The position numbers were made by a program, and so were the translations under genes. Below the pieces are notes generated by a model. That model did no database searches and had not been told where the DNA came from. It worked only from the letters and a program-made list of their open reading frames with translations. A stretch of 55,264 nucleotides of DNA, from positions 1-55,264 of the forward strand of contig JBKSMY010000005.1 in the NCBI GenBank assembly GCA_046882065.1, read 5' to 3'. This document shows positions 3,917 through 54,971 of this stretch, piece by piece. How positions within the stretch are numbered: the first letter of the stretch is position 1; each line of letters begins with the position of its first letter. Origin of the DNA: Alphaproteobacteria bacterium (lineage in GTDB: Bacteria > Pseudomonadota > Alphaproteobacteria > Rs-D84).

Positions 3917-5077
3917 TTGTTCGGTTACACCACCATTTTTAACGCATTCTGCATATTCCTCGGGATTAACCTTGGTCCAGCATTGGTTGTCCAGATTTGT
4001 GTTATTATTTTTTGTCTTTCCTTTGCCATACTGCAAATCTGTCTTACTGTACGCGCTGGCTGGCTTACAACTATCAGATTGAGTATCGAAATATTCACCA
4101 GAACGACATTTAACGCATGTTCCATCACGCATACTAGAACCACCGCGAACCGATGACGAACAATCCGTACAATTCGTTATATCACCGGGGCTTGGAAAGG
4201 CTTTGTCTGGATCCTTACAAAAATACACCCAACAATTCGCAGACTCGTTTTTTACCATTCTGTGCAAAGAAGAATTGAATTTGCTTGCTGGGAAGTCGCT
4301 ACAATATACTGGTGGCAACATATCAGCGGTCGCCTTGATACAATCAGTATTAGAATCATTTGGTGTATATCCCTCTTTACACAACAACTTCTTGCCGGTC
4401 GTCGTGACCACAGAAGCCGTATCCACATAAGAAGTAATGCCCCTCCAGTCTTCCCATTTACATCCAACTTGAACTGGTGCCGCAATAACACCATTTTTCA
4501 AAAACTGCACAACGCCCAAAATAATATCATATTCACCACTATCTTTTGAATTCCACCAATAATTCCATGTATTAAAACCTGTAATATTGTTTTCATAATT
4601 GGTCATATACCCTCCCCATGTATTTATTGAAATACCAGATTTTAAATTAGAAATTACATCACTAGAATTTTCAATCACATTGACTTGTTTTAAGCAACCC
4701 GCACCTGAATACCCCTTTTCACACAACCACGCGCACCTGGATCTATGAAAGTTAACTGGATAGAAATATTCCGTCCATGTAAACTTATGTTTTCTTTTGT
4801 TTCTGCATTGAAGTTGATATGGACAAAAATATCCACCATGCTCGTTAATCTGTTCTGCAATAACTACCGCGATCGCACCTTCGTCGTCAAAAGAAGATTT
4901 ACGACAACTTTTACCCAAACAGCCATCTAAAATAAATTCACCAACGCTGCCCTGGGGATTTGTATTGCCCGTATACCCCCATGCAGACCAATACGCAGTA
5001 GAATTACTTATTGCCATGGCCGATGTTTGGGATATGCAAAACGGAACAATAACCGCAGCGATTTTCTTCAATTTCAT
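3914..5077 (-). CDS. Secreted cysteine-rich protein of unknown family, with EGF-like Cys spacing in places
   Basis: I chose the start at 5077 (MKLKKIAAVIVPFCISQTSAMA) because it has SD gaggac 5 nt upstream and avoids overlap with the upstream stop at 5101. A signal peptide is followed by many Cys. Segments such as CAWLCEKGYSGAGC and CKEGYTPNDSNTDC resemble EGF-type spacing. A C-terminal CTDC...C.KC..GEY...SDSC module is also present. Confidence 0.6.
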   Translation of the reverse strand: MKLKKIAAVIVPFCISQTSAMAISNSTAYWSAWGYTGNTNPQGSVGEFILDGCLGKSCRKSSFDDEGAIAVVIAEQINEHGGYFCPYQLQCRNKRKHKFTWTEYFYPVNFHRSRCAWLCEKGYSGAGCLKQVNVIENSSDVISNLKSGISINTWGGYMTNYENNITGFNTWNYWWNSKDSGEYDIILGVVQFLKNGVIAAPVQVGCKWEDWRGITSYVDTASVVTTTGKKLLCKEGYTPNDSNTDCIKATADMLPPVYCSDFPASKFNSSLHRMVKNESANCWVYFCKDPDKAFPSPGDITNCTDCSSSVRGGSSMRDGTCVKCRSGEYFDTQSDSCKPASAYSKTDLQYGKGKTKNNNTNLDNQCWTKVNPEEYAECVKNGGVTEQ

Positions 5078-5100
5078 GTCGTCCTCACTTAATAAAACCT

Positions 5101-31962: not shown

Positions 31963-32036
31963 TGGTGCGGGCGAAGGGAATCGAACCCTCGTCTTCAGCT
32001 TGGGAAGCTGACGTGCTACCATTATACCACGCCCGC
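31963..32036 (-). tRNA. tRNA-Gly (anticodon CCC), CCA encoded
   Basis: Minus strand: GCGGGCG-TG-GTAT-AATGGTA-GCAC-G-TCAGC-TTCCCAA-GCTGA-AGAC-GAGGG-TTCGATT-CCCTT-CGCCCGC-A-CCA. It is nearly identical in layout to E. coli tRNA-Gly(CCC). G1:C72, C2:G71 and G3:C70 are present. Confidence 0.85.
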
Positions 32037-32502: not shown

Positions 32503-32928
32503 CTACCGACGGCGTCTAGACTTTCTTTGCACTCTATCATTTTTATATCTGTCCTTATGCCTTTCTGTTTCTTCGTTTGCCTTTTTGCACACCGAAACAC
32601 GCACATCCAAAATTACATTTTCCAATTCTGACCGAATATCATAGTGATAGTCCATCTGATATACATGCGTACCCTTGACTGCATTATTACAACGCTTGTG
32701 CATAGGCTGCAAATTTTCCAAAGAATCCTTACCGCCTGCGACTTTTGGAACAATATGATCCCATGTAAAATCGTTTATATCATAGATATATTCCTTGCAC
32801 CATGGGCATACTGGATAATGCCCCATAGCAATCAGCAACGCATAAATTTTCTTTAAATGTCGTTTATTTAACTGCTCTGGATTCTTTTCCAATGACCGCA
32901 ACAAGCCTAAAATTTCATTCGGACGCAT
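32503..32928 (-). CDS. Small HNH endonuclease
   Basis: CPWC...FTWDHIVPKVAGGKDSLENLQPMHKRCNNAVKG is a canonical HNH beta-beta-alpha-metal core with a CxxC zinc ligand pair. The C-terminal tail is basic. Confidence 0.75.
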   Translation of the reverse strand: MRPNEILGLLRSLEKNPEQLNKRHLKKIYALLIAMGHYPVCPWCKEYIYDINDFTWDHIVPKVAGGKDSLENLQPMHKRCNNAVKGTHVYQMDYHYDIRSELENVILDVRVSVCKKANEETERHKDRYKNDRVQRKSRRRR

Positions 32929-32938
32929 ATGCCCTCCA

Positions 32939-34096
32939 TCAATGCTTTCCCGACGTTGGAATTTGCAACAACTGTTTTGGATAAATCAAATCAGGATTTG
33001 ATATTGCATTACGTTCTGCGATAACGCTGAACAAAACCCCACGACGCAAAAAGTTACGCGCGATAATCCACAAACAATCCCCACGACGTACAGTGTAATA
33101 TGTATCATCATCACCAGTCATTTCTGGCATAACAAACTTATGCATAACTGTGCCAATGGTGCGTCCATCACCATCATGCATACGAACTGCCAGTTCATAT
33201 TCTTTACCGCTTTCCAGTTCACCAACATCAGCACCCAAACCAAAGTGTCTATGATCAGACACACGCGCAAAACCCAAATAGTCGCCATTCAATGCCAACG
33301 ACACACGCAAACGTGGCAAACCGTCGCCCGAAACTACAACACGACCAGTATCTAAATAATCAATTTTAGAAACCGCCAAATCACCATCACGCAACATCGC
33401 AGGTGCCTGCAACAACGTACTGCCTTCTTTGGTCATCAACAATGATACAGAATTTTCCACACCTGCATCCGACACATACACAAAAACCTTGTCAGATGAT
33501 TTCACCTCAGGTTCTGCCCCCAACAAAGCAATTGTATAGTTGCCCGGTGCCCACGCATGTGCAGACGTATAAACAAATTCACCTGCATAGTCTGTGCGTT
33601 CTGTTGCAACAATCTTGTTATTCACAACAATAGAAATATTCTGATGTGGCAACCAACGCCCTGCAACAACAACATCGCCATCTTTTTCGATACGAACAAT
33701 ATCAAATGTTGGCACCGTAATTTCATTCACCTTTTGAACAACCGGTTCTGGCACAGCCGGCACTACAACAACACGAGGCTGGGTCGCACCGCGAATAAAC
33801 ATAACCCACACAGCGATAAAGATTACCAACATCGCGCACAGAATGGGGAACCAATACGCACGCAATACGCCATGACGTTCACGCGCAGCCGCCACATCTT
33901 CTGCTGCGACAGATTGATTTTCTGTCTGTTTCTTATTTGAAGGACGCGCAAACATGTTCAAAGACTTTAAAAAACCGCGTGTATATTCACGACGATTTTC
34001 CTGCCAATCATTCTGCTGTGCAATCGCATCATTTATCATATCGTCCGTAGAACGTTTTGTTTTACCCATATTATTATTTTTATTCTGTTTTGACAT
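32939..34096 (-). CDS. Membrane-anchored LysM-domain protein
   Basis: TM AYWFPILCAMLVIFIAVWVMFI. The C-terminal LysM is YTVRRGDCLWIIARNFLRRGVLFSVIAERNAISNPDLIYPKQLLQIP. Confidence 0.75.
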   Translation of the reverse strand: MSKQNKNNNMGKTKRSTDDMINDAIAQQNDWQENRREYTRGFLKSLNMFARPSNKKQTENQSVAAEDVAAARERHGVLRAYWFPILCAMLVIFIAVWVMFIRGATQPRVVVVPAVPEPVVQKVNEITVPTFDIVRIEKDGDVVVAGRWLPHQNISIVVNNKIVATERTDYAGEFVYTSAHAWAPGNYTIALLGAEPEVKSSDKVFVYVSDAGVENSVSLLMTKEGSTLLQAPAMLRDGDLAVSKIDYLDTGRVVVSGDGLPRLRVSLALNGDYLGFARVSDHRHFGLGADVGELESGKEYELAVRMHDGDGRTIGTVMHKFVMPEMTGDDDTYYTVRRGDCLWIIARNFLRRGVLFSVIAERNAISNPDLIYPKQLLQIPTSGKH

Positions 34097-41602: not shown

Positions 41603-41630
41603 TTGACAAACACACTTTGTGTATTATAAT
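41603..41630 (+). promoter_or_regulatory. Consensus sigma70 promoter (TTGACA-N16-TATAAT) giving a near-leaderless transcript
   Basis: ttgaca at 41603-41608 and tataat at 41625-41630. The ATG at 41640 is only 9 nt past the -10 element, and there is no SD. Confidence 0.5.
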
Positions 41631-41639
41631 TTGACTATC

Positions 41640-42560
41640 ATGAAAGATATAACACCGGCTATCCGTCGCAACATCAACAAGGCACTAAATCCCAGATTGG
41701 CTGAACAAGACTATCTGGAGTGCGCTGTATTGGACGCATTATTTCGCGACGAATATATCAATGACAACTTTATATTTACCGGTGGCGCCACATTATCCAA
41801 ATCATACAGTATCGGTGGGCGCATTGGCCGTGACATAGACCTGGGGCTAATAAACTTTGCTGACGTTCCACGCGACCGCACACAAAAACAACTGGGAAAC
41901 TTCAAAAAACGCTTCAAACGCTTTACATTCGGCGAACTGCGCAACAAAATAGCCCAGACAGTAAATCAACACGGTCGCTTTGAAATCATCACAGACCACG
42001 ACTGGCCATCCCCAGAAAACACCGAACGCGTTGCATCTTCACCCGCCTTGCACATGTTGTACAAATCGGAATTTGGCACCGGCCACCTGTGCATCGAGGT
42101 TATGCCACGTCGCTATCGTCCGTCTGCAATAACATATCGCGAACTATTACCATACGCACTTGAAAAAACGTTTGGTGCCATTCCAACTGTGTCATACGAG
42201 CAAACATTCTGGGACAAAGTTTTCGCATTACATTCCAACGCAAACAGCCCTAAACCACACTGTGACAAATCATATTCACGCCACTATTATGACGTTGCGG
42301 TCCTGTCACCGTATATTGACCTGGACCAGACACATGATTTATTGCGCGACACAATTGAATACCAAATTCGTCACACAACTAAAAAGATAGACCTGACCGC
42401 TGCACGCGACGCAATAATAATCCCAGATGACAAAACACTTTATAAATTGTCGAACGATTATTATGCAATGTCAGGCACATTTATCGAACAGCCACAAACA
42501 TCGTGGAACACAGTTGTCCAGATTCTACAAAATCTGAACCAAGACCTGCGGTCTTTATAA
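41640..42560 (+). CDS. AbiEii/AbiGii (DUF1814, MenT-like) nucleotidyltransferase toxin-family protein
   Basis: FIFTGGATLSKSY (GGTAL-like), GRIGRDIDLGL (R.S.D.D-like), LCIEVMP, EQTFWDKVFAL, and SRHYYDVAVL (RDxYD-like). Confidence 0.65.
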   Translation: MKDITPAIRRNINKALNPRLAEQDYLECAVLDALFRDEYINDNFIFTGGATLSKSYSIGGRIGRDIDLGLINFADVPRDRTQKQLGNFKKRFKRFTFGELRNKIAQTVNQHGRFEIITDHDWPSPENTERVASSPALHMLYKSEFGTGHLCIEVMPRRYRPSAITYRELLPYALEKTFGAIPTVSYEQTFWDKVFALHSNANSPKPHCDKSYSRHYYDVAVLSPYIDLDQTHDLLRDTIEYQIRHTTKKIDLTAARDAIIIPDDKTLYKLSNDYYAMSGTFIEQPQTSWNTVVQILQNLNQDLRSL

Positions 42561-42576
42561 AAAAAGGATGAACACA

Positions 42577-43101
42577 ATGGCAAAATTTGTTTTTTCCGAC
42601 CCACACTTTGATTCAGAATCCATTATCAAAAATGGGAAACGACCATTTAAGTCTGTTGCCGAAATGAACGCCACATTGATTCAGAATTACAACGCCACCA
42701 TTGGCAAACAAGACATATGTTATTGGCTGGGCGACATAATGTATGGGGCAACCAAAGAAAAAGTCGCAAACATCCTGCGTCAATTGCGTGGACGCAAATA
42801 CCTGATTATGGGCAATCACGACCGTGGACATTCCGCCACATGGTGGTTGTCATGCGGATTTGACAAAGTATTTGAACATCCAATCTATGATGCTGAAAAC
42901 TATATAATGCTGTCTCATGAACCGTTACCAGAATTTGGCAACATACCGCCAATTGCGAATATACATGGACACATTCATATAATGGGCTACGATTTTACAG
43001 AACATTCACATTGTATAAACGCATGTGTTGAAATGACAAACTATCGTCCCATTCCGCTACACAATCCATTCTTATTACAGCAACGTAAATTCGAGCGTTA
43101 A
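42577..43101 (+). CDS. Small metallophosphoesterase (calcineurin-like, AQ1575-type)
   Basis: FVFSDPHF, RPFKSVAEMNATLIQNYN, YWLGDI, MGNHD, LSHEP, and HGHIH. SD aagga lies 8 nt before the ATG at 42577. Confidence 0.8.
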   Translation: MAKFVFSDPHFDSESIIKNGKRPFKSVAEMNATLIQNYNATIGKQDICYWLGDIMYGATKEKVANILRQLRGRKYLIMGNHDRGHSATWWLSCGFDKVFEHPIYDAENYIMLSHEPLPEFGNIPPIANIHGHIHIMGYDFTEHSHCINACVEMTNYRPIPLHNPFLLQQRKFER

Positions 43102-43130: not shown

Positions 43131-45203
43131 TTAAAACATTGGTGGGAAACATTCATCTGTTCCAACGGCACAACACATCAATGCACCATCGCCAACATCT
43201 GTCAGTTCTTCGCCTGCACAACACCCATCGGCATCTGGCGCAGCCCCATCGGCACACGTTTCAATTTCTTCTTCGACTGCGACATCTGTTTCATACTCGG
43301 GCGCGGCCACAAACATTTTGTCATTTTGCGACACATTATAGGCCGGCTTATCCACAATCACATCAATTATAGGCTTAGTTGGTGTCGCCACAACCGTTTC
43401 TTCGGTCAAGAACGGTGATTCCGGTTCCACAGGCACAATCTCTGGTTCTGCGACAACTTCATCTGGTTCTGGGGTCACAGGCACTTCAACGATTGGCGCA
43501 ACTTCTTCTGCGACCTGAACAGGCGTCGCCGGGGTCACAGGAACTGGTTCTGGTTCAACATCAGCAACCTCTGGTTCTTCTAAAACCGGCACAGGTTCAA
43601 CGACTTCCGCAACTTCCTGAACTTGTGGTTCTGAAACCTCAACCTGTCCGATAAACGGAGACGACGCCACCTCTGCCACTTCCGACTTTTCTTCTGTCTT
43701 TTCCACTTCTTCAACAACAGGCGCAGTCTTCGCACCCAACTCAGGCATTGTATCATTTGCAGACCGCTGATAAATCCATAATGTAAATATAGACAACGCA
43801 ATCAACACAACCAGCATCACATAATACAAAACTGTTGGCTTATTACGAACAGGCGTTGCCGTTTCTGTTGCCACACCCGTTATTGGGGACACAGGACGCA
43901 TACCGGATTCAACCGGCGCAGGCGATATTTCCGGCATTGGTTGCACAGATTCCGCAACTGTCTGTGACGGTAAAACATCTGCCACAGGCTGCACATCTGG
44001 CACAGTCGGCATGGTTTCTGGCACAGGCGTCACAAATTCCTGCGGCTGGGGCAGGGGTGCTGGCTCAATCGTTGCCAACAACTCAGAATCTATTTGCTCT
44101 GACGGCAAATTCACCGATGTCAAACTATCCAACACAGGCGACGCAACTGGCACCTCGGGCTGAGACTGCACAGGCGGCGCAAAACTTAGCGGCGCAATCG
44201 GCGCAGATTCGGCATACCCATCATCAGCCGGCAACGCAGGTGTATTGGATTCTGTTGGTAAATTAAAGTCAATCGGCTTAAAAGCAATTTCTTCATCCAA
44301 AAATTCTGGATCTTTGTCAAACAACGGCTTTACTTCATCATCTGCCATTTCTTCCGCCTTTGGTTCTTGGGCTATTGGTTGTTCATAAGGTGTAATTTCT
44401 GTAAATTGAGGCACTTGCGCCATTGGCACAGACGGCTGTTCAAATTCTGCCACATCTGTTGGCATCGGCGCCGCAGGCAACTTTTTATTTTCCGGCATCA
44501 GACCGTCCAAACGCGCCAATATATCACGCGCAACATCTACATCTTCTACTGCCACATCTAAACGTCGTTGCGCACTGCTCAGGCGTTTTTTTGCCCGCAT
44601 CAATTTATCATTTGTCGCGTCTATTTGCGACTCTGTTCTCAAAATTTTGGCTGCCGACTGTTTAGTTGGCTCTTTTCCAACCTCGCGTCGTTGTTCTGTC
44701 AACTTGGCTCGCAGGCTTTTCAGTCGCACCTGTTGTGCATCAATTGTTTCTGTTGTTTTTTCAATTGTTTCGCGTGCGCGTTCTGCAACAATATCTGCCG
44801 CCCCCAAACGTTCCAAGGCCGCACGTCGCGCAGCATCATTACGAAACGCCATCAGGTTCGCCAACGCCCCAGACAAATCACCACCATTATTATAGGCACG
44901 CACCAGATTATCGTATTCTGCCAACCCAGTATATTCAATATCCAGTTTTTGATATTTGTTGTCTTTCTTTGGGCGAACTGTTTCCAAATCGACCGCATAA
45001 TCATTCGTCAATATATCGTCCCACTTGCGGTCACCAACAGGATTTATCACCAATAAAACATTTGGTTTTACATCACTAACAACAAAATCCAACACCACGA
45101 CCAATTTTTGATCGACGTCATAATACGCACGGAACACATTTCCTGCGATATCATAATCAACATAGGTCAACGGCTGATAAAAATTCTCTCTCTCGTATGG
45201 CAT
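43131..45203 (-). CDS. Bitopic 690-aa protein: N-terminal globular domain, coiled coil, Pro-rich spacer, single TM, acidic Pro/Glu/Val repeat region, C-terminal Cys cluster
   Basis: TM VLYYVMLVVLIALSIFTLWIY. Repeats of the EVAEVVEPVPVLEEPEVADVEPEPVPVTP type. The protein ends in CADGAAPDADGCCAGEELTDVGDGALMCCAVGTDECFPPMF. Confidence 0.55.
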   Translation of the reverse strand: MPYERENFYQPLTYVDYDIAGNVFRAYYDVDQKLVVVLDFVVSDVKPNVLLVINPVGDRKWDDILTNDYAVDLETVRPKKDNKYQKLDIEYTGLAEYDNLVRAYNNGGDLSGALANLMAFRNDAARRAALERLGAADIVAERARETIEKTTETIDAQQVRLKSLRAKLTEQRREVGKEPTKQSAAKILRTESQIDATNDKLMRAKKRLSSAQRRLDVAVEDVDVARDILARLDGLMPENKKLPAAPMPTDVAEFEQPSVPMAQVPQFTEITPYEQPIAQEPKAEEMADDEVKPLFDKDPEFLDEEIAFKPIDFNLPTESNTPALPADDGYAESAPIAPLSFAPPVQSQPEVPVASPVLDSLTSVNLPSEQIDSELLATIEPAPLPQPQEFVTPVPETMPTVPDVQPVADVLPSQTVAESVQPMPEISPAPVESGMRPVSPITGVATETATPVRNKPTVLYYVMLVVLIALSIFTLWIYQRSANDTMPELGAKTAPVVEEVEKTEEKSEVAEVASSPFIGQVEVSEPQVQEVAEVVEPVPVLEEPEVADVEPEPVPVTPATPVQVAEEVAPIVEVPVTPEPDEVVAEPEIVPVEPESPFLTEETVVATPTKPIIDVIVDKPAYNVSQNDKMFVAAPEYETDVAVEEEIETCADGAAPDADGCCAGEELTDVGDGALMCCAVGTDECFPPMF

Positions 45204-45223: not shown

Positions 45224-45790
45224 TTATTTCTTCTTTGGCGGCGTGAACTGATAGGCCTGCTTGCAATGTTCATAGCAATACGGTTTACCCACAAACACAG
45301 TTTCACCACAGAAATGAAAATGTTCTGAATCTGGATCACCAATTGGCCAACGACACTGATTAGGCTTCAAATTTGCCATTTCCAACGAATGTTGAATGAT
45401 ACGCTGATGCATTGCCAAACTCTTGGCATTCGCCTTAGAATCCGTCTTCTTAGGTGCGTCCTTCTGCGCTGCAACCTTTGTCGCGGTCTTTTTTGTCGCT
45501 GTTTTAGTTTCTGCTTTTTTTGCGACCGTCTTCTTTACAGTTCCCGCCTTTTTAACTGGTGTCTTTTTAACAGACTCTGTCTTTTGGGCGGTTTTCTTCT
45601 TTGCGTCCACCGCTTTATCATCTGCCGCTGCTGCACCACCAGCCTTGGCATTCCACCCCAGTCGGTTTAACTTACCCACAATTGCATTTTTCGACATACC
45701 CAAACGCTTACCAATTTCAGACGTCGACAACCCCTTACCGGTCAAAGCCTTTAACTTTTTCAGCGTTGCGTTATCCCAACCTTTGCTCAT
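45224..45790 (-). CDS. gcrA: Cell-cycle transcriptional regulator GcrA
   Basis: W....LKKL...GLS.SEIGKRLG.S.NA.VGK..RLG N-terminus and C-terminal CRWPIGDP....F.FCG.....G.PYC..H. Confidence 0.88.
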   Translation of the reverse strand: MSKGWDNATLKKLKALTGKGLSTSEIGKRLGMSKNAIVGKLNRLGWNAKAGGAAAADDKAVDAKKKTAQKTESVKKTPVKKAGTVKKTVAKKAETKTATKKTATKVAAQKDAPKKTDSKANAKSLAMHQRIIQHSLEMANLKPNQCRWPIGDPDSEHFHFCGETVFVGKPYCYEHCKQAYQFTPPKKK

Positions 45791-45863
45791 TTTACAAAAT
45801 CCTTACTATACATTATAATAACAGTATAGCACGCATCCGATTCGAAAGGCAAGGGGGAAAAAC

Positions 45864-46334
45864 ATGATTTTTAACATCTTTTTCATTTTATTATTAATCG
45901 GCGCAATCACCTGCGCGACCCTGATTTCCATCACAGATTTTCGCCGTCGCATAATCCCAGACGCCTATTTATTCCCATTGATGTTAATTGGTCTGATTTT
46001 AATTACATTTTTTGGTTTCCCAATCAGTATGCGCGACGGGGTAATTGGTGCAACATTTGGCTATGCCATGTCCGCAATTATCGGTTTTGCCTTTGATTAC
46101 TTTATCCGCCACAAAACCCCAGATGCCACACCCCCAATCGGCATGGGCGACATAAAACTGATTGGCGTTGGCGGATTATGGCTGGGAACAACGGGTTTAT
46201 CGCTGGCACTAATTGTCGCATGCCTGACGGGGGCGATATGGGCGCGCGTCAAAAACCAGAAATTCATACCATTTGCGCCATTCTTTATATTCGGTGGAAT
46301 TTTATCTTTAATCACAAACTTATTTTTGTTATAA
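45864..46334 (+). CDS. A24-family prepilin peptidase (CpaA/TadV-like, peptidase domain only)
   Basis: Polytopic membrane protein. Two catalytic-Asp contexts: ISITDFRRRIIPD and GMGDIKLIGVGG. SD aaggggga. Confidence 0.75.
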   Translation: MIFNIFFILLLIGAITCATLISITDFRRRIIPDAYLFPLMLIGLILITFFGFPISMRDGVIGATFGYAMSAIIGFAFDYFIRHKTPDATPPIGMGDIKLIGVGGLWLGTTGLSLALIVACLTGAIWARVKNQKFIPFAPFFIFGGILSLITNLFLL

Positions 46335-46363
46335 TAAATCCAACAGGGACCCAGGACAAGAGA

Positions 46364-48367
46364 ATGAAATTTCATTTATTTATTGTTTTTTCGATGTTTT
46401 TAGCAACATTGGCGCATGCTGACACACCTTTTTCACACTATGGTGTAATTCAAAACGTACAAAACTATTCATCGAATCCATTTTGGAATCCAAACGGTCC
46501 ATACAATCAGCGCATGCCTACGGCTGTGTATGCAATGGGTCCTGACATTGGCACCGACGAATGTCAAAACATGGTATCATACCTGGTATCGGTTGAATGT
46601 GAATCACGCAACAAATGCGTATCGACCCAGTTGTCAGACATTCGCCCATCGATAATATCCCAGTTATCCCAGATACCCGACGGCAACTACGCTTCGTCCT
46701 GTGGCGGATATATCGACACTGCTTTTGAACAGTATTTAAAAACCAACGCGATTGCGGCCCCATCGGCAGGCGCAGCATTTCCAACAACAACGGGCATGGG
46801 CACCGCAACCACAGAATCAACATTTGAAATCAAAAATCCACTCAGCCCTAAATTACAACAATGGCAAATGGAAATTCTGGACCGGAAACAGGAATTAAAG
46901 GATTTACAATCCGCGAATGGGGTATCTGACCCAGAACTTGTTCGCACGACGGACTTTCCAGCAACATATGCAGATTTATCATTTGGCGAACGCATGGCAA
47001 ACGCGACGGCGGGCTATGAACCATACAAAGATTCCCGCGCATATAAAGAAATTAAGGTAGAAAGTCAAAAAGATTATTTGACCCGTCACAACCCAACTGC
47101 CACCCCAGACAATAAAAAAAAAATACCTGAATCAGAAGACCAAACGCCTGGGTTAATAACAGAAAACCTGCCTGATGAATTCGAGGCACTATTCCCCTGG
47201 TACGGCATCCTGATCGTCAAAGCAGGCAGCCTAGACGAATACGCCAAACAAGACCTGCCCATCATTTCAACCGAATACATGAAACAACATCGTGACGAGT
47301 TTTATCCCGACAACTCGGACAGAACGATGGGATGGCACCGCGCCTGTACGCACAGCAACCATATGGCACACGACAAAGACGTCATAAACCGCGCCACCCA
47401 CATACAAATGGGTCAAAAAGACAGTTACTGGTCTGGCAGTGACTTCTATGTATATGACGGCGCCGATGTTTATTGGGGCTGGGCAACAATCGCAGGCGAA
47501 GTGGCATTGGCTCTATTGACTTTCGGCATCAGTGCCGAAGCAACCGCCGCAAAAACCGCCGTCCAAATAACCGATGCCGGCGTTAAAACTGTCAAAGGTG
47601 CTTCCAGCACAGTGACCGCTGTAAAACTTAGCAAAGACGGCAAAAAAGTACAAAAGGCCATTGAAGCCGCCAAGGCTGCCAAGAAAGCCGACGCCGCATC
47701 CCGCACAGCCGCAATAGACGCGCTGTCGGACGCTGGTATAACCGTACGCAACACTGCAAATTACAAATCGTTGAACGCCATCGGACGTGCCCTAGAATCC
47801 ACAGCAACCTTTAAACCTGTATCATGGGCCTCATCTCTGCGACATCCATGGAAACTGGTGGCCAGCGGCGCCAAAAACATCGTCCCAAAAACGGCAAATG
47901 CTTTGGGGCCCGGATCTACATGGTCAAAGCGTTTTGCTACACTTGCAATCGGTGGCGGTGCCGTTGGCGCGAATTATTTTGGACGTGAATTAATCAAAGC
48001 ATTCGGCTACAGCAGTGCCGCACTAAAAGACCCCCAAACCGGCAATATTTCGTTCAACAGTTTTGGACTGTTATCCGATGACGACGAAGAAGGGCGCGAA
48101 AACGTTGTTTCGCATGGTGCCTGGATTCAATTCGAAACAATCGGCACGCAAAATGACGATGACGCCATAAACGAAGCAACCCGTTTTGCCGAAGAATTAA
48201 CCGAAGAAATCAATCGCATAAACGCAGAAGACCCACAATGCAATGTGGACGTGTACGTGGTTCAACCCGCAATCAGCAACCCCAAAAAATTACCCGGCCC
48301 CAAGGCCATATGGTATATTTTGATGAACAATAACACAGACGCATTTAAAGTCAGGACAAGCGAATAA
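46364..48367 (+). CDS. Large secreted protein A (667 aa), a paralog of protein B; unknown family
   Basis: Signal peptide MKFHLFIVFSMFLATLAHA|DTP. Cys-rich N-terminal part. A hydrophobic segment WGWATIAGEVALALLTFGISA is followed by an Ala/Lys-rich helical region. The conserved C-terminal domain is shared with B. Confidence 0.6.
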   Translation: MKFHLFIVFSMFLATLAHADTPFSHYGVIQNVQNYSSNPFWNPNGPYNQRMPTAVYAMGPDIGTDECQNMVSYLVSVECESRNKCVSTQLSDIRPSIISQLSQIPDGNYASSCGGYIDTAFEQYLKTNAIAAPSAGAAFPTTTGMGTATTESTFEIKNPLSPKLQQWQMEILDRKQELKDLQSANGVSDPELVRTTDFPATYADLSFGERMANATAGYEPYKDSRAYKEIKVESQKDYLTRHNPTATPDNKKKIPESEDQTPGLITENLPDEFEALFPWYGILIVKAGSLDEYAKQDLPIISTEYMKQHRDEFYPDNSDRTMGWHRACTHSNHMAHDKDVINRATHIQMGQKDSYWSGSDFYVYDGADVYWGWATIAGEVALALLTFGISAEATAAKTAVQITDAGVKTVKGASSTVTAVKLSKDGKKVQKAIEAAKAAKKADAASRTAAIDALSDAGITVRNTANYKSLNAIGRALESTATFKPVSWASSLRHPWKLVASGAKNIVPKTANALGPGSTWSKRFATLAIGGGAVGANYFGRELIKAFGYSSAALKDPQTGNISFNSFGLLSDDDEEGRENVVSHGAWIQFETIGTQNDDDAINEATRFAEELTEEINRINAEDPQCNVDVYVVQPAISNPKKLPGPKAIWYILMNNNTDAFKVRTSE

Positions 48368-50019
48368 TGCCACGAAAACTCGCGATACTATTTATGTCGT
48401 TGGTCACATTTGCGGCACACGGTACCGACACCGAATGTGCGTCGCGTGTGTTTGCCGACGCATTGGCACGGACTGCAAATACGGTGGATGAATCGGCACA
48501 CGAAACAGACATTCAAACCTGGATTTATCAAACATTCGCATTACCGGATGTTTTGAACGACGTGTTGGCATGTCCTGAAATTGCAAATATGCCCGACGAA
48601 GAAACGATTAAATTCACCCCCATACAATATACATTCCCAGGCGGTCGTGAAATTGTTGTAAATTATGAAACCCAGCCACGCGTATTAAAACAACGCATCA
48701 CACTGGGGAACAAACGTGATTTGCCATCCGGCGGGGACAGTCCACGCATTGGCGCACATGGCGACGATGCAATTTGGACAAATACTGATCCTGCATGGTA
48801 TGCCATCATGGTGGTTGAACACGGTACATTAAATAACTTTGTTGGCCCTGACAAAAACAATACAATTTCATTAAACTACATAAAAAACAACATTGATAAA
48901 CTGTACCCATCTGGCATAACCTGCACCAGCAAAAGCGCACTTGCCAACGACAAATACGCGATAAACGACACCGTTCGCACAACAGTAAATATCGAAGACG
49001 ACTCAAACGATTACTATGTTGCAGGCGACGTTAATTTACAATGGATATCCTATGCCGAAATGGCGCTGGACGTTGTTATTACCGTTGCAACAATGGGTGG
49101 AGGTCTGGTAATATCGGGCGCAACGAAATCCGCCCGCGCATCCCGCGCATTAAAGGGCCTGGGCACAACAATCAAAACATTAGAAAAATCAGACGACGTT
49201 GTAAAATACGTACGCGCCACACGCGACGCGGCAAAATTAACTGATGAAATCAAGGCACTGGATACGGTTGCCGACGCTGCAAAAATCGCCGACAAAACCC
49301 GCGAATTAGACAAATTGCAAGACAGCATCAAAACAATGGAAAACATTGATGATGTAAAAAAATATCGCGATGCCACGCGCACATATTCCGAACTGAACGC
49401 ATATCGGCACAGTCTGCGCGGCCTGCGTGCAATCCGCACCGCCCAACGCGGCAACATAATTGCTCGTGCGGCCCGCGCAACAAAATCAGCCATGACAGGC
49501 AACAAATTAATAACCCGCGCCGCCAAACTGGGGCGCAGTGGCAAAATGTCGGCCCGTGTGCGCGATTGGCTGTTTAATTCCACAATGAAAAACATCGGCG
49601 TCCTGGGCAAAATGGAGGCCACCGGCGGTCTGCTGTACGGCGCGATAAAATTTGCCGGCGACATGTACGATTGGACCGAAACCAGTACCGGCGAATTTAC
49701 CAGCGGTGTTGAATTTGCCCCATTGTTATTGTTATCTGCCGACGATTTACAGGGCCAAGAAAACGTTGTCAACCACGGCATGTGGCTGATGTGGGCGGGC
49801 GACTCGGTCAGTGCCGCCGACGACGATGCCGCATACCTTCAGGCCATGGATTTCGCCGCAAAATTCCACCAAGATTTATCCGAATACCAAAACGACACCG
49901 CATCACCATGCAACGTTGATATCTTTGTAGTACGCCCAGTTTTACGAAACCCAGGTTCCGACAGCCCCGAATTATATTACCTTATTATGAATGACACACC
50001 ATGGACAACAAATGAATAG
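48367..50019 (+). CDS. Large secreted protein B (550 aa), a paralog of protein A
   Basis: The start overlaps the stop of A (TAATG). Signal peptide MPRKLAILFMSLVTFAAHG. A hydrophobic segment ALDVVITVATMGGGLVISGA is followed by an Ala/Arg/Lys-rich region. The C-terminal block LLSADDLQGQENVVNHGMW...PCNVDIFVVRPVLRNP aligns with LLSDDDEEGRENVVSHGAW...QCNVDVYVVQPAISNP in A. Confidence 0.6.
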   Translation: MPRKLAILFMSLVTFAAHGTDTECASRVFADALARTANTVDESAHETDIQTWIYQTFALPDVLNDVLACPEIANMPDEETIKFTPIQYTFPGGREIVVNYETQPRVLKQRITLGNKRDLPSGGDSPRIGAHGDDAIWTNTDPAWYAIMVVEHGTLNNFVGPDKNNTISLNYIKNNIDKLYPSGITCTSKSALANDKYAINDTVRTTVNIEDDSNDYYVAGDVNLQWISYAEMALDVVITVATMGGGLVISGATKSARASRALKGLGTTIKTLEKSDDVVKYVRATRDAAKLTDEIKALDTVADAAKIADKTRELDKLQDSIKTMENIDDVKKYRDATRTYSELNAYRHSLRGLRAIRTAQRGNIIARAARATKSAMTGNKLITRAAKLGRSGKMSARVRDWLFNSTMKNIGVLGKMEATGGLLYGAIKFAGDMYDWTETSTGEFTSGVEFAPLLLLSADDLQGQENVVNHGMWLMWAGDSVSAADDDAAYLQAMDFAAKFHQDLSEYQNDTASPCNVDIFVVRPVLRNPGSDSPELYYLIMNDTPWTTNE

Positions 50020-51139
50020 AATCATCGGCATATTTTTTGCACTCTCCATTTACAGCCCAAGTTTACTGGGTGCGTCTTTATTACAACCTGCATCATTTCC
50101 AACGACATCAATGGACGCAACATTCATTGAACGTCGCGACAGCGCCGCCGCCGGCTACAAACCATTCACAAATCGCAGCGCATATCAACCCGTAATCATT
50201 GAATCCGAGCAAAAATATATGCTGCGCCATGCAGAATCTGTGCGAAAATCAGACCTGGCCAGCATGACAACCGCCCAATATTGCAGCAAATATCCGCTGG
50301 ACGCGACACGTTGCGTGCAAAAACCAGACGCGTATGAATCCACCATTAAAATTGGCGATCGTCCATCCGTCCCCACCACAACACCCCCAACCACAACACC
50401 AACTCCAACCACAACTCCAACGCCAACCACAACACCAACCACAACACCAACGCCAACGCCAACTCCAACACAACCACAGGCACCCGCACCATCAAAGCCC
50501 CACCATAACATTAACGACAACCAGGTCGTCAGAATGGGGCCACAAAATCACAATGGTCCATGCACACCACCACAACGCAGTGATGTTTTTTCAAACAAAA
50601 TTCTAACCAGCGGTCAATATCAACAATCCGACCCAGCATTTGAAAAAACCATGATAACAACATTTCGTGCCGAAGGGGGCTGTGGGAATCATCCAAATGA
50701 TTCAGGTGGCTATACATGCTATGGCATATCGCAAAACAACAACCCCGAAGTAGACGTACGAAACATCACACGCGCCGACGCAGAAAACATTGCCCACCGC
50801 AAATATTATACCAAATACGGCCTAGACAAACTGCCTGACTATATCCGCAGCGACGTTTTCACATTTGGTTGGGTGTCTGGCCCCGTCACCGCCATCCACA
50901 ACCTATGCCGTGTCCTGGGTCTGCCCGAGCGCAATAAAATAGACAGTGAAATTGTCATGGCAACTGAAAACTATAACGGCGATTTACACAACGACTATTT
51001 GGACGCCATGCAACAATATTTTATCAAATGCGCCCAAAAACCAAAGCAAGATGTATTTTTGACAGGCTGGATGAACCGCGTCAAATTTACGCGTGAAAAC
51101 AGTTGCCACTATCCAACCACCGACCCGATTTACCGATAA
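50012..51139 (+). CDS. Secreted GH108-type (lysozyme-like) peptidoglycan hydrolase with a Pro/Thr linker
   Basis: ATG at 50012 overlaps the stop of B. Signal peptide MNRIIGIFFALSIYSPSLLGA. The linker is PTTTPPTTTPTPTTTPTPTTTPTTTPTPTPTPT. FRAEGGCGNHPNDSGGYTCYGISQ resembles the GH108 EGG...P.D.GG.T..GI motif. Confidence 0.6.
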   Translation: MNRIIGIFFALSIYSPSLLGASLLQPASFPTTSMDATFIERRDSAAAGYKPFTNRSAYQPVIIESEQKYMLRHAESVRKSDLASMTTAQYCSKYPLDATRCVQKPDAYESTIKIGDRPSVPTTTPPTTTPTPTTTPTPTTTPTTTPTPTPTPTQPQAPAPSKPHHNINDNQVVRMGPQNHNGPCTPPQRSDVFSNKILTSGQYQQSDPAFEKTMITTFRAEGGCGNHPNDSGGYTCYGISQNNNPEVDVRNITRADAENIAHRKYYTKYGLDKLPDYIRSDVFTFGWVSGPVTAIHNLCRVLGLPERNKIDSEIVMATENYNGDLHNDYLDAMQQYFIKCAQKPKQDVFLTGWMNRVKFTRENSCHYPTTDPIYR

Positions 51140-51201
51140 TTTATTCCTGTTGTTTTTTTACATCAAATCCGTATAATGAATAATAACAGGGGGACGCAAT
51201 A

Positions 51202-51519
51202 ATGAAGAAAATATTATTATCATTAGTATTAGTTATTACAACGATATGCACCGCCAACGCATACCAGGTTTTATCATCCAAAGAACTGGGGCAAAACGAC
51301 GCAAAAAATCAGAACGTTGTTGTCAAATGCACCACCGACACCGGCAAAATATCAAATCAGACATGTTCGTTGCGTCGCTATGCCAAATGCACCGGCACAG
51401 GCACACAAAAACGTTGCAACGGATGGCAACCATGGCGTGATTTGCGCAATCCAACCACCCAATACTCTGACTGGAAGGCGGCGGCATCCGCATGTTGTCG
51501 TGCCAAGGGCTTGCGCTAA
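51202..51519 (+). CDS. Small secreted Cys-rich protein (105 aa)
   Basis: Signal peptide MKKILLSLVLVITTICTANA. The mature part carries 7 Cys and is basic. A terminator follows. Confidence 0.5.
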   Translation: MKKILLSLVLVITTICTANAYQVLSSKELGQNDAKNQNVVVKCTTDTGKISNQTCSLRRYAKCTGTGTQKRCNGWQPWRDLRNPTTQYSDWKAAASACCRAKGLR

Positions 51520-51532
51520 GAAAACAATATGT

Positions 51533-51560
51533 AAAAAATCCCGCATTTGCGGGATTTTTA
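51533..51560. terminator. Bidirectional hairpin terminator (operon end / leuS)
   Basis: aaaaa-atcccgc-attt-gcgggat-ttttta. Confidence 0.65.
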
Positions 51561-53960
51561 TTACTTCTTTACAACAAAGTTCACTAACTTTTTCGGCACG
51601 ACAATTGTCTTGACGATTTCCACGCCCGCCAATTTATTAGCCACCGCTTCACGCGCAGCGGCAATAATCGCATCTTCGGTTGCATCAACCGGCACGACAA
51701 AGTCTGCCGCGCGTTTACCGTTAACCGACGCAACAATTGTCATAGATGTTTCAACCAATTTTGCGGCATCAAACGTTGGCCATGGTTCAAACACCAGCAT
51801 ATCTGAATGTCCAATTTTTTCCCACATTTCTTCGGTCAAATGTGGTGCAAATGGATTCAGCACCTGCAACAACGCTTCATACGCAGGGCGGGGCATAGTT
51901 CCACCTGGGAACGCGTTGATATATTCCATCATTGCGGAAATAGTTGTATTAAACTTCATATTTTCCAGACGTTCTGTTGCATCCGCAATCAGTTTATGCA
52001 TCAGGCGTTCTTGTTCTGCGGTCATTGGCACATCTGTTAAGTTGTCCGCCAAACCTTCGACGCGTTTCAAGAAACGCTGAACACCCGCCAACGCACCTTC
52101 GGACCAGTTAACATTAGAATCCCATGGCCCCAGCGACAAAACCGTCACGCGCGCGGCATCGGCTCCAACTTCGGCAACTTTTTCATCCACCTGGAAACCA
52201 TTTCCTGCGGACTTTGACATCTTTTTGCCATCAGACCCCATCAACAAACCGTTTGTTGTACGTTTGTGATACGGTTCTGGGGTGTTAACGTGTCCCAAGT
52301 CAAACAACACGCGATGCCAGAAACGCGAATAAATCAAATGACGCGTATTGTGTTCATTACCGCCGTTATAGTGTCCAACCGGCATCCATTTTTCCATCTG
52401 TTCGCGCGAACAGAACGCATCATTATTGCGTGGATCTAAATATCTCAGGAAATACCACGAAGAACCCGCCCATTGTGGCATAGTATCTGTTTCGCGACGT
52501 GCGGCCGCACCACAGCACGGGCAGGGCACATTCACCCAATCCGTTGCGCGCGCCAATGGTGATTCACCATCTTCGGTTGGTCTAAAATCTTCCATATGCG
52601 GCTGCATCAATGGCAATTCAGATTCCGGCACCGGCACCCATCCGCATTTTTCGCAATAAACCAAAGGAATTGGTTCGCCCCAGTACATCTGGCGTGAAAA
52701 TCCCCAATCGCCCATACGATATCTGACCTTTGGTCGTGCGATACCGCGTTCTTCACCGACTTTGATTGCGGCGGCGATTGCGTCTGCCTTGCCCATACCA
52801 TTCAAGAAATCAGAATTGATATGTTCACCATCACCTTCCCAGACTTCGTCTGGTTTACCACCTGCCAAAACAGGAATTACATTGATACCAAACTTTTTCG
52901 CAAAGTCCCAGTCGCGACTGTCATGTGCCGGCACCGCCATAATTGTCCCATGCGCATAGTTCACCAACACATAGTCCGCCACGAACACCGGAATTTCGGT
53001 TCCTGTAAACGGATTAACGGCCATAATACCTTCCAGTTTAACGCCGGTCTTGTCCTTGGTTGCGTCTGTTCTGTCAAATTCAGACTTTGCCGCAGATTCT
53101 TTAATATATGCACGCACTGCATCTGCATTAGTAATTTTCCCAGTGTCCAGCCATTTTGCCAACAACTTATGCTCTGGGGCGATTGCACAGAACGTCACTC
53201 CGAAAATAGTGTCCACACGCGTTGTATAAACAGTCATAATATCATCACCGACACGGAAATCAACATCTGCACCGGTTGAACGTCCGATCCAGTTAATCTG
53301 GTCACGCTTTACTTTTTCCGGGTAATCGACAATATTCAGACCGTCCAGCAATTTGTCTGCATATTTAGTAATCGCCAGATTCCATTGCATTTTTTCGCGC
53401 ACTTCAACCTCGCCATGACAACGATTACACTTGCCGTCTTCTAATTCTTCATTAGTCAAAGTTGTACGGCAATTCGGGCACCAGTTCATCGGCAACATAG
53501 ACTTATACGCCAACCCCGCCTTAAAGAACTGAATAAACATCCACTGTGTCCATTTGATAAATTCCGGATCAGATGTTGCAACCTGGGCATTCAGGTCGAT
53601 TGACCACCCCATATCCAGCATATTTTTTGTAAATTTTTCGGCCAACTCGCGCACAACGACCGACGGATGTTTACCGATTTTGGTTGCATAATTTTCGGCC
53701 GAAATCCCCAGCGAATCAAACCCCAGCGGATACAGCACATCAAATCCCTGCATACGACGAAAACGTGCCATAACATCGCATCCTGTATAGTTCAACATAT
53801 GACCACCATGCAATCCCGTACCACTTGGGAATGGAAATTCCGCCAGCATATAAAACGGCTGCTTGCTGCCATCATTTTTTGGTGTAAACACACCCGACTG
53901 TTGCCATTTATTCTGCCATTTGGCTTCACGCTCGTGAATTTTTTTGATATCATCTGCCAT
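51561..53960 (-). CDS. leuS: Leucine--tRNA ligase
   Basis: FPFPSGTGLHGGH (HIGH region), CP1 editing-domain length, GKKMSKSAGNG (KMSKS). 799 aa. Confidence 0.9.
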   Translation of the reverse strand: MADDIKKIHEREAKWQNKWQQSGVFTPKNDGSKQPFYMLAEFPFPSGTGLHGGHMLNYTGCDVMARFRRMQGFDVLYPLGFDSLGISAENYATKIGKHPSVVVRELAEKFTKNMLDMGWSIDLNAQVATSDPEFIKWTQWMFIQFFKAGLAYKSMLPMNWCPNCRTTLTNEELEDGKCNRCHGEVEVREKMQWNLAITKYADKLLDGLNIVDYPEKVKRDQINWIGRSTGADVDFRVGDDIMTVYTTRVDTIFGVTFCAIAPEHKLLAKWLDTGKITNADAVRAYIKESAAKSEFDRTDATKDKTGVKLEGIMAVNPFTGTEIPVFVADYVLVNYAHGTIMAVPAHDSRDWDFAKKFGINVIPVLAGGKPDEVWEGDGEHINSDFLNGMGKADAIAAAIKVGEERGIARPKVRYRMGDWGFSRQMYWGEPIPLVYCEKCGWVPVPESELPLMQPHMEDFRPTEDGESPLARATDWVNVPCPCCGAAARRETDTMPQWAGSSWYFLRYLDPRNNDAFCSREQMEKWMPVGHYNGGNEHNTRHLIYSRFWHRVLFDLGHVNTPEPYHKRTTNGLLMGSDGKKMSKSAGNGFQVDEKVAEVGADAARVTVLSLGPWDSNVNWSEGALAGVQRFLKRVEGLADNLTDVPMTAEQERLMHKLIADATERLENMKFNTTISAMMEYINAFPGGTMPRPAYEALLQVLNPFAPHLTEEMWEKIGHSDMLVFEPWPTFDAAKLVETSMTIVASVNGKRAADFVVPVDATEDAIIAAAREAVANKLAGVEIVKTIVVPKKLVNFVVKK

Positions 53961-54236: not shown

Positions 54237-54971
54237 ATGGCAAAATTAAAACATTTTTATTTATTCATCGCCGCATTGGTATTCGCAAAATCGTATAATA
54301 TTTCTGCCGCCTATGCTATGACAGATGCCGAATGTTGGATGGCCCAGCAAATTATGTGGTGGTATGACGACAATCCAGAATACAAGGACAACCCTCAAAG
54401 TGATGACGCAGAACTGGGACTTAGGCTGCACTGCAACAACGGCGCCATCGTCGATCAAAGCGTTTGGGATTGTGACGCCACAACCATGTCCGAGGTTGAA
54501 TGCGGCAGCGACGGTTCCCAAGCATGGTGTAACGACGTTGTAGAAAACTATTTAAACGACATTGCTCATTGTGAACAATTTGGTTTAACATACGAAGAAT
54601 GTTCCCTGGAATTCGAATGGAACTGTAATACGATGACCTGTCCCGATGGCGAAGGCTATGAACCCGAGGAAGACAGATGTCGTCCATGTGGCAACGGCAC
54701 ATACCAAACGCGCGGCAGATTCGACATCAACGCCACATGGTATTATGGCGACTATTGCAAGCCTTGTACGCTTTTCACGCCGGGTGACGACAACAGCAGC
54801 AAGTGGCCAGATTCACCAGAATACGCAACCAGCGAAGACGAATGTTACATCGTAGCGGACACAAATTGGACGTTCGAAGACAGTACTGGCACTGGCAGCG
54901 TATACTTCGGTCAAAACGGCACGTCCATGGATTGTTATTACGACGGCCACCTAGGAAACGCTGGTTCCTAG
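54237..54971 (+). CDS. Secreted acidic Cys-rich protein with a TNFR/furin-like CxxC module
   Basis: Signal peptide MAKLKHFYLFIAALVFAKSYNISAAYA. Many Cys. CRPCGNGTYQTRG....YCKPC is reminiscent of the module in the 1-1161 protein. SD ggggaga. Confidence 0.55.
   Translation: MAKLKHFYLFIAALVFAKSYNISAAYAMTDAECWMAQQIMWWYDDNPEYKDNPQSDDAELGLRLHCNNGAIVDQSVWDCDATTMSEVECGSDGSQAWCNDVVENYLNDIAHCEQFGLTYEECSLEFEWNCNTMTCPDGEGYEPEEDRCRPCGNGTYQTRGRFDINATWYYGDYCKPCTLFTPGDDNSSKWPDSPEYATSEDECYIVADTNWTFEDSTGTGSVYFGQNGTSMDCYYDGHLGNAGS

Follow-up and report, generated by a model that had tools for sequence, protein, structure and literature searches.

Introduction

Type 10 secretion, which depends on a holin and a muramidase, is exemplified by Salmonella TtsA with typhoid toxin, Serratia ChiWXYZ, and Zymomonas ZliS. 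Specialized wall hydrolases such as FlgJ, VirB1, and EtgA belong to envelope-spanning machines, and peptidase-only A24 enzymes include TadV, CpaA, and FlaK, of which the TadV/CpaA type normally serves Flp pili; in alphaproteobacterial cpa operons, the gene for the cpaA-type peptidase comes first, followed by those for periplasmic and outer-membrane components. Here we analyze a five-gene cluster in which an A24 peptidase and a GH108 muramidase are encoded together with exported proteins that match no family in the databases searched. The cluster lies within a 55,264-nucleotide stretch of DNA from an Alphaproteobacteria bacterium of the Genome Taxonomy Database (GTDB) lineage Rs-D84 (GenBank assembly GCA_046882065.1, contig JBKSMY010000005.1, positions 1 to 55,264), which we refer to as the window, and its genes are designated gene 1 (the peptidase), A and B (two large exported proteins), D (the muramidase), and E (a small exported protein). 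An earlier note on this DNA had proposed that the locus is a self-contained module in which the muramidase enables the two large proteins to leave the cell. Comparison with related loci leads us to favor another reading, tentatively and as something possible rather than probable, namely that the cluster encodes a clade-specific envelope complex that places exchangeable membrane-inserting proteins.

Candidatus Enterousia, from which the window comes, and its relatives are uncultured, abundant, and widespread in human and animal guts. A comparative genome paper placed Enterousia in the uncultured order Rs-D84, the genomes of which are mostly smaller than 1 Mb and lack flagella, a respiratory chain, and standard transporters, with glycolysis incomplete, and it proposed a partner-dependent lifestyle as probable (PMC12306168). 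The cluster is among the few conserved, lineage-specific features of these bacteria that offer enzymatic handles (the peptidase and the muramidase), and one of its positions bears a clear signature of exchange.

Results

A conserved gene frame confined to one clade

We compared 86 loci, 80 of which are the best of 239 matching stretches found when each GTDB species was scanned through a single genome. The proteins of the window were searched against all 86 with tblastn, and gene content was recorded in a census of 73 complete operons. The 80 best loci bear titles such as Candidatus Enterousia, uncultured gut Alphaproteobacteria, and termite-gut "Rickettsiales" metagenome-assembled genomes. Close relatives of protein B number more than 900, every one of them from metagenome-assembled Alphaproteobacteria, and an exhaustive profile search across 1.84 billion cluster representatives returned only 136 clusters, all of which are B, its A-type paralog, or fragments of either; the B family is therefore confined to this clade. 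As for the cluster as such, it occurs only in Ca. Enterousia and its uncultured gut relatives within the alphaproteobacterial order Rs-D84. A second search for relatives, based on the peptidase, gave orthologs only and added little.

Gene A of the window is a fusion of two modules, A_N and A_C, which are separate genes in most relatives. Once it is divided in this way, a constant order emerges in the complete operons: A24 peptidase, A_N, a variable position that we term the slot, B, an optional GH108 gene, and E. This frame is kept in more than 70 species-level genomes, with median gaps of 23 nt between the peptidase gene and A_N, about −1 nt between A_N and the slot, about 0 nt between the slot and B, and −8 nt between B and the GH108 gene. 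B was found in all 86 loci, A_N in 83, the A24 peptidase and E in 79 each, the divergently transcribed neighbor gcrA in 78, and X690, a gene downstream of gcrA, in 77; counts below 86 in this group are mostly due to contig ends. The GH108 catalytic domain was found in 31 loci and the convergent neighbor leuS in 11. Conservation of the X690-to-E block thus goes far past what background synteny would give, which is not true of the muramidase. The five-gene order of the earlier note stands as far as the frame is concerned, but its GH108 gene is present in only 24 of the 73 complete operons, and its pair of coupled large paralogs, real in this window, is seen in only about 10.

Two other identities for the cluster were considered and rejected. 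A phage origin or lysis cassette is contradicted by four observations: PHROGs were matched by the muramidase alone, relatives of B were absent from the 2.9 million viral contigs searched, the G+C content equals that of the window, and the chromosomal block is syntenic across species. As to an anti-phage defense system, PADLOC gave only coiled-coil noise in X690.

An exchangeable cassette between A_N and B

The slot holds a paralog of B (A_C) in about 10 of the 73 operons, this window included; elsewhere it is occupied by one of three exported families, M1, M2, or M3, sometimes as two or three genes, and once it is empty. The paralogy of A and B recognized in the earlier note is borne out, the two aligning at 26% identity over 426 residues (BLASTP, 2e-30), and resides in A_C (hhalign with B, 99.9%). 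M1, M2, and M3 are unrelated to one another and to B, which brings the unrelated families in the slot to at least four, and the idea that distant homology joins all slot families with B was rejected, as hhalign links A_C alone to it.

Comparison of the window with two other Enterousia species (L007 and L029) revealed a nucleotide identity of 94–100% over positions 47087–48350, against 60–85% in most of the operon. This high-identity tract coincides with A_C, running from just after a module that A_N shares with the muramidase to the start of B. It represents a recombination tract and shows that the content of the slot moves as a unit; at least the A_C cassette has recently been exchanged between species by recombination.

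All products of the cluster but the peptidase carry predicted cleavable Sec-type signal peptides and invariant cysteines. Every slot family additionally contains one to three Gly/Ala-rich, marginally hydrophobic segments (in A_C, at 47474–47536), and in M3 these form tandem hairpins, with one of the 11 members of the family weakly matching Pfam glycine-zipper families (E 1.6e-4 to 2e-3). Such marginally hydrophobic, Gly/Ala-rich hairpins characteristically belong to proteins that enter membranes once they have been exported. In A_N, E, the GH108 protein, and the product of Z, an exported family encoded downstream of many of the operons, the signal peptide is the sole hydrophobic segment.

A slot of this kind could instead belong to a polymorphic, bacteriocin-like locus for membrane-active toxins, with the slot proteins, perhaps together with B, acting as pore-formers through hairpins of the glycine-zipper type, either against competitors or for extracting metabolites from a partner, and with the constant genes providing maturation and delivery. 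Unrelated cassettes at one position, one of them recently exchanged between species, and the composition of the hairpins argue for this explanation, as do hosts that lack standard transporters (PMC12306168). However, no immunity-type small gene accompanies the cassettes in the complete operons, where the slot is usually a single gene; no known toxin domain or pore-forming fold was matched, XaxA (6GY8) reaching only rank 50 (E 3.5) in a Foldseek comparison with the B model, the helical region of which is of low confidence; and B is constant, not polymorphic. We consider a toxin locus improbable, although it survives the comparison better than the other alternatives discussed below.

A shared module ties an optional muramidase to the frame

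A_N begins with a signal peptide, followed by an invariant mature N-terminus (PFS.YG.IQNVQNYS), a four-cysteine helical domain (46541–46753), and a C-terminal module of about 50–70 residues (46937–47089; consensus FPTTYADLSF..R..NA.AGYEPYKD..AY..I.IE). Its AlphaFold model is confident at residues 60–130 only, which correspond to the four-cysteine domain; a saposin-like fold for this domain (2DOB, probability 0.28) was too weak a match and was not used. In gene D, the signal peptide is followed by a module of the A_N type (50078–50230), a Pro/Thr linker of 46 residues (residues 118–163; 50363–50500), and the catalytic domain (50636–51106). The modules of the two proteins are clearly related (BLASTP, 2e-10; hhalign, 99.5%, E 2.6e-23 over 72 columns).

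The GH108 assignment made in the earlier note is confirmed, as are the signal peptide, linker, and EGG motif it described. Gene D matched PF05838 at 63.3 bits (cut-off 21.2) and the endolysin family phrog_315 (E 6e-32), and PF09374, a C-terminal peptidoglycan-binding domain that many GH108 enzymes have, gave no match at E ≤0.1. The protein carries EGGCGNHPNDSGGYTCYGI with the EGG...GG.T..GI motif, and its catalytic Glu221 (RAEGG, 50672–50674) aligns with the EGG of PDB entries 7DNP and 2IS5. Best among the PDB relatives is 7DNP, which was deposited as a "secretion activator protein," which we take to be a Brucella muramidase linked to type IV secretion, and which aligns over residues 209–364 of gene D with chain residues 5–166 of 182; the others include 2IS5 and the TtsA-type structures 6V3Z and 6V40.

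The muramidase is absent from 49 of the 73 complete operons while the A24 peptidase, A_N, B, and E remain, and one locus (L017) contains a decayed GH108 of which only a 27-residue remnant is left. Where it is present, its associations are close. The C-terminus of B is fused to GH108 in two cluster representatives, P0095 (L004:7637–10048) and P0153, and in the former locus a second, separate GH108 gene directly follows the fusion. In five loci, four from the census (L053, L055, L057, and L062) and one on an incomplete contig (L054), the muramidase bears a complete A_N-like N-part. The module in common with A_N and the fusion of GH108 to the B C-terminus together argue for a functional bond between the muramidase and the cluster, in which the enzyme works with A_N and B.

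These fusions also bear on the topology of B. In the AlphaFold model, the two terminal parts of B reach moderate to good confidence (block means 63–89); they contain helices and strands and hold four invariant cysteines. The central helical region between them, 224–385 residues long, is poorly predicted, basic (Lys+Arg 23%, Asp+Glu 11%), and rich in Ala, Lys, and Arg, and it is bounded by Gly-rich hydrophobic segments at 49051–49122 and 49594–49659 (median Kyte-Doolittle values 1.73 and 0.87). Given the signal peptide, the cysteines on both sides, the fusion to A_N at the N-terminal end, and the fusion to GH108 at the C-terminal end, B and its paralog are predicted to have both of their ends outside the cytoplasm. 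The central region may then either loop through the cytoplasm from one membrane span to another, which the clustered Lys and Arg residues beside both hydrophobic segments would fit, or form a long helical hairpin in the periplasm.

As the earlier note had expected, A, B, and E found no family in Pfam, NCBIfam, PHROG, or PADLOC, and the models of A_N and B found no characterized fold: Foldseek gave no match at E ≤0.001 in the PDB or BFVD, the top matches being generic coiled coils. PDB profile searches with B, A_N, E, M1, M2, and M3 returned nothing meaningful. E is the best-conserved member of the cluster, with a mean column identity of 77%, 49 invariant columns, and six invariant cysteines in the mature part.

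The proposal of the earlier note, that GH108 opens the wall and the Sec-exported A and B leave the periplasm as toxins or adhesins in a type 10-like manner, can be weighed against these data. An intact catalytic glutamate, relatives among the secretion activator and TtsA-type structures, and fusions that place B and GH108 in one compartment are all in its favor, and the candidate cargo carries Sec signal peptides, as do the typhoid toxin subunits. On the other hand, the enzyme is missing from most complete operons and decayed in a further locus; none of the five proteins matched a holin in PHROG, and gaps of 29, −1, −8, and 62 nt leave no space for another gene; the muramidase is exported by its own signal peptide; the A/B paralog pair is not general; and the peptidase, A_N, and E are left without a role. 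Because GH108 is lacking in two thirds of the operons, type 10-like export is not the general mechanism, and a self-contained export module no longer fits. The idea is nevertheless partly supported, as muramidase-dependent export may be an accessory function where GH108 is present, and we judge it unlikely as an account of the whole cluster.

A nearly invariant control region joins the operon to gcrA

Hardly any variation is seen in the spacer that separates gcrA from gene 1: each of its 71 distinct sequences contains CGAWTCGAAAGGCAAGGGGG, in which the central N alone varies. The variable base lies within GANTC (GATTC or GAATC; 45839–45843), approximately 25 nt ahead of the start codon of gene 1. 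In Alphaproteobacteria, GANTC is the motif tied to methylation by CcrM and to promoters that depend on GcrA, and the restriction of variation to its central base indicates selection on the motif itself. Two overlapping promoter-like elements occupy the spacer, TTTACA-17-TATAAT on the plus strand (45791–45819) and TTGCCT-18-TATACT on the minus strand (45852–45823). The GANTC motif falls some 13 nt past the start predicted for the plus strand and inside the spacer of the gcrA-directed site. This arrangement suggests GcrA/CcrM-type control of gcrA, of the operon, or of both.

E has a promoter of its own, consisting of ATTCC-N2-TTGTTT (−35) and a perfect TATAAT (−10, 51172–51177). Its elements (ATTCC-N2-TTGT and TATAAT) are kept in 45 distinct orthologous upstream sequences, with either B or GH108 as the preceding gene. 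The five-gene operon described in the earlier note is therefore a real and tight gene cluster, but its unit is an operon plus one gene and not a single five-gene transcript. The ATTCC upstream of the −35 element may be a regulator site.

Linkage to gcrA raises another explanation, according to which the cluster is a cell-cycle-controlled module for wall or envelope growth, with B, A_N, and E regulating or positioning peptidoglycan hydrolases (GH108 or others) under GcrA. The almost invariant 73-nt GANTC spacer that strictly links the operon to gcrA fits this proposal, the module common to the muramidase and A_N could mean competitive or regulatory binding, and in small genomes such as these, retained genes tend to matter (PMC12306168). 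Recombining, unrelated slot cassettes are, however, unexpected in a housekeeping morphogenetic complex. The searches turned up nothing similar to a known regulator of the divisome or elongasome, and the GANTC motif, located inside the gcrA promoter-like spacer, may serve gcrA alone. A growth module consequently strikes us as doubtful, about as much so as type 10-like export.

An A24 peptidase with conserved catalytic motifs

Gene 1 matched PF01478 at 57.4 bits (cut-off 26.5) over profile positions 4–103 of 104, in agreement with its earlier description as a peptidase-only A24 enzyme, of the GxGD aspartyl type. Its catalytic residues are Asp25 (45936–45938) in TDFRRRIIPD and Asp96 (46149–46151) in GMGDIK, and since all 79 orthologs retain the D-x5-IPD and GMGDIK motifs, the peptidase is very probably active. 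Each locus has one A24 copy; a second A24 gene was not found in 1.6 Mb of related loci.

The earlier note had reported no Tad or Pil gene in the window, and this holds: Pfam and other family scans identified no member of the Tad, Pil, or type II secretion system (T2SS) families in any window open reading frame (ORF) of at least 120 aa. No ORF of at least 35 aa in the window, those of the cluster included, has a prepilin-like N-terminus (G/xxxxE followed by a hydrophobic stretch). Within 10 kb of the 86 loci, we detected no combination of a T2SSE-type Walker A motif with GE[IMVL]R[DG], as would mark a secretion ATPase. A prepilin-like site inside B, at a near-invariant Asn-Ile-Gly before the second hydrophobic segment, was set aside as speculation only; the glutamate stands at +6 instead of +5, and a pilin helix would be much more hydrophobic than this segment.

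The peptidase might accordingly be a housekeeping enzyme for an unlinked type IV pilus, Tad system, or T2SS and merely share a promoter with independent neighbors. The usual service of TadV/CpaA-type peptidases to Flp pili is consistent with this possibility, as is the absence of a class III signal peptide from the cluster proteins and from the 10 kb around the 86 loci. However, the peptidase gene has remained adjacent to A_N, at a median gap of 23 nt (29 nt here), in 79 loci though the genes flanking the block vary, and the 10-kb surroundings contain no secretion ATPase motif. Type IV pili have moreover been reported for another reduced-genome lineage and not for Rs-D84 (PMC12306168). We regard an independent peptidase as unlikely, a shade more so than the growth module. 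Least credible of all, and in our estimate very improbable, is a degenerate relic of a Tad/Cpa pilus with its other genes diverged past recognition: a cpaA-type peptidase does head the cpa operons of Alphaproteobacteria, but an ATPase, secretin, platform, or pilin was picked up by neither Pfam nor motif scans nor profile comparison, fold searches with B and A_N came back without a match, and the products are Sec-exported, with no cytoplasmic motor left.

The locus and its neighbors

The coordinates of the cluster and adjoining features are collected in Table 1. A six-frame ORF list, the sequence itself, and a terminator scan reproduced the ORFs, intergenic gaps, Shine-Dalgarno sequence, and terminator of the earlier note. 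Gene 1 lies behind AAGGGGGAAAAAC, and its start is preceded by the Shine-Dalgarno sequence AAGGGGG. The stop codon of A overlaps the start of B in TAATG (48365–48369), and that of B overlaps the start of D in ATGAATAG (50012–50019). Gene D has an alternative ATG at 49991, and 62 nt separate it from E.

Table 1. Features of the cluster and its immediate surroundings in the window
Feature	Position	Strand	Basis or remark
X690, 690 aa, bitopic	43131..45203	-	ORF; same position in 77/86 loci
gcrA, cell-cycle regulator	45224..45790	-	PF07750, E 4e-29; divergent neighbor in 78/86 loci
73-nt bidirectional control region	45791..45863		Promoter scan and 71 distinct orthologous spacers
Gene 1, peptidase-only A24, 156 aa	45864..46334	+	PF01478
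Gene A, 667 aa	46364..48367	+	29-nt gap after gene 1
Gene A, A_N part	46364..47089	+	Stand-alone protein of ~290 aa in most relatives
Gene A, A_C part (slot cassette)	47087..48367	+	Paralog of B residues 144-543
Gene B, constant large exported protein, 550 aa	48367..50019	+	86/86 loci
Gene D, optional GH108 muramidase, 375 aa	50012..51139	+	PF05838; 31/86 loci
Gene E promoter	51143..51177	+	Elements kept in 45 distinct orthologous upstream sequences
Gene E, small exported protein, 105 aa	51202..51519	+	79/86 loci
Bidirectional hairpin terminator	51534..51559		11-bp stem with 5 GC pairs, T-runs on both sides
leuS, convergent	51561..53960	-	Shares terminator with cluster

X690, a member of the conserved block, sits 20 nt downstream of gcrA and encodes a coiled-coil N-part, Pro-rich regions, one transmembrane segment, an acidic Pro/Glu-rich region, and a Cys-rich C-terminal end. 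It has no Pfam family, its matches in Pfam and PADLOC being to coiled coils only. Its topology is reminiscent of polar organizing proteins, homology to which was not found. Next to the conserved block lie genes for an AbiEii-type nucleotidyltransferase toxin (41619–42560) and a small metallophosphoesterase (42568–43101); this pair occurs in 3 of the 86 loci, the closest relatives only, and is thus a variable insertion. Inside gene B, an antisense ORF of 243 aa (49050–49781, minus strand) is most likely spurious, its Ala/Arg/Ser-rich composition arising as the complement of the Lys/Ala-rich region of B.

In 42 loci, the Z family, exported proteins of about 800–940 aa without a Pfam match, is encoded 0.5–6 kb downstream of E (for example, L059:13241–15826, L004:13135–15783, and L043:12466–14940). 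The window has leuS downstream of E instead, and a Z paralog of 29–30% identity lies far upstream (5101–7431, minus strand), adjoining another family-less ORF of 415 aa (3914–5161). A further candidate surface protein, exported, very Cys-rich, acidic, family-less, and 244 aa long, is encoded at 54237–54971. Rfam identified a single RNA element in the window, a tRNA gene away from the cluster (31966–32036, minus strand), which stands beside ORFs for an HNH endonuclease (32503–32928) and a LysM protein (32939–34096). The remaining genes of the window are of the housekeeping type: trigger factor, thyA, dnaE, secA, tolQR, ruvB, argS, dnaK, genes for ribosomal proteins, and leuS.

Discussion

The reading that we tentatively favor, a clade-specific envelope complex for the placement of exchangeable membrane-inserting proteins, would assign a part to each member of the cluster. 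A_N, B, and E would constitute a fixed envelope scaffold, to which the A_N-type module would dock whichever protein carries it, A_N or the muramidase. The slot proteins would be the exchangeable components that insert into membranes. Where the muramidase is present, it may open the wall locally, so that the complex and its slot protein gain access to the outer membrane or to a partner cell's surface. Cleavage of one of the components, whether at a non-canonical site in a cluster protein or in an unlinked pilin-like protein, would fall to the peptidase, and expression of the operon would be coupled to that of gcrA through the common GANTC-bearing control region. In favor of this reading are the closely spaced, conserved frame and its confinement to one lineage, the export signals and invariant cysteines, the variable slot with its recombination tract, the Gly/Ala-rich segments, which only B and the slot proteins have, the module and fusions that involve the muramidase, the intact catalytic residues of both enzymes, the invariant GANTC, and the biology of hosts with reduced genomes, no standard transporters, and a proposed dependence on partners (PMC12306168).

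Several points weigh against this proposal. We infer the scaffold and docking roles from fusions and common modules only; export, module sharing, fusion, and cassette exchange are observed, and localization, contacts, substrates, and activity are inferred. The AlphaFold models, of moderate quality (mean predicted local distance difference test scores 57 and 62) and with no fold match, make the globular parts of the proteins uninformative on function. The hydrophobic segments are marginal, with free energies of +1 to +5 on the Hessa scale, and could sit in the cell's own inner membrane, in the outer membrane, in a foreign membrane, or in a protein core. With two thirds of the operons devoid of a muramidase, crossing of the wall must usually proceed without GH108. 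No credible peptidase substrate with a class III signal peptide emerged within 10 kb of the 86 loci, 1.6 Mb in all. Finally, GANTC occurs in the window 155 times against 155 expected, and this lack of depletion means that a genome-wide CcrM signature is not evident.

A more specific version would make the cluster an undescribed apparatus of Rs-D84 bacteria, composed of A_N, B, and E, matured by the pilin-type peptidase (an intramembrane aspartyl enzyme) through action on non-pilins, and helped in some lineages by a docked muramidase, which deploys exchangeable membrane-inserting proteins for interaction with a partner or extraction of its nutrients. We think this version unlikely to be correct in full, though more credible than any single alternative above. 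Were the cluster such a device for contact or tapping, it would offer a testable entry into Enterousia biology and would extend the substrates of prepilin-type peptidases past pilins.

Because the cluster lacks the defining features of type 10 and type IV filament systems, and because its constant proteins occur in one clade only, we place it outside the known kinds. It may still prove to be a form of assisted export or a bacteriocin locus, in which case it would nevertheless add several protein families and a GH108 docking module that are new. The A24 and GH108 enzymes themselves are ordinary members of known families.

Set beside type 10 systems, the cluster is alike in encoding a GH108-family muramidase next to large Sec-exported proteins, with PDB relatives that include the TtsA type. 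It differs in that this muramidase is optional (24 of 73 operons), has its own signal peptide and a module of docking type, and comes with no holin, and in that the A24 peptidase, A_N, B, and E have no counterpart there. With Tad/Flp systems, type IV pili, and the T2SS, the cluster has in common a peptidase-only A24 enzyme with both aspartate motifs, encoded first in an operon for exported envelope proteins; in contrast to those systems, it lacks a pilin, class III signal peptide, ATPase, platform, and secretin in the operon and within 10 kb of the 86 loci.

Polymorphic toxin loci resemble the cluster in the occurrence of unrelated genes at one position and in the transfer of A_C, which in some species is fused to A_N, but the cluster has no recognizable toxin domains or paired immunity genes. 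The M3 hairpins and the weak match of one M3 member out of 11 recall the glycine-zipper proteins (Gly-zipper_YMGG, Gly-zipper_Omp, and Gly-zipper_OmpA, of the SlyB/17-kDa antigen type), although the M3 matches are below the level of family membership and the proteins, which are not lipoproteins, exceed the glycine-zipper ones greatly in size and have extra Cys-rich domains. As for the specialized wall hydrolases, the complex proposed here would differ from their machines in consisting of relative-less proteins, with no ATPase or channel component found. It would resemble them in its use of a dispensable accessory hydrolase, recruited through a module or a fusion, as seen in the A_N-type module and in the B-GH108 proteins.

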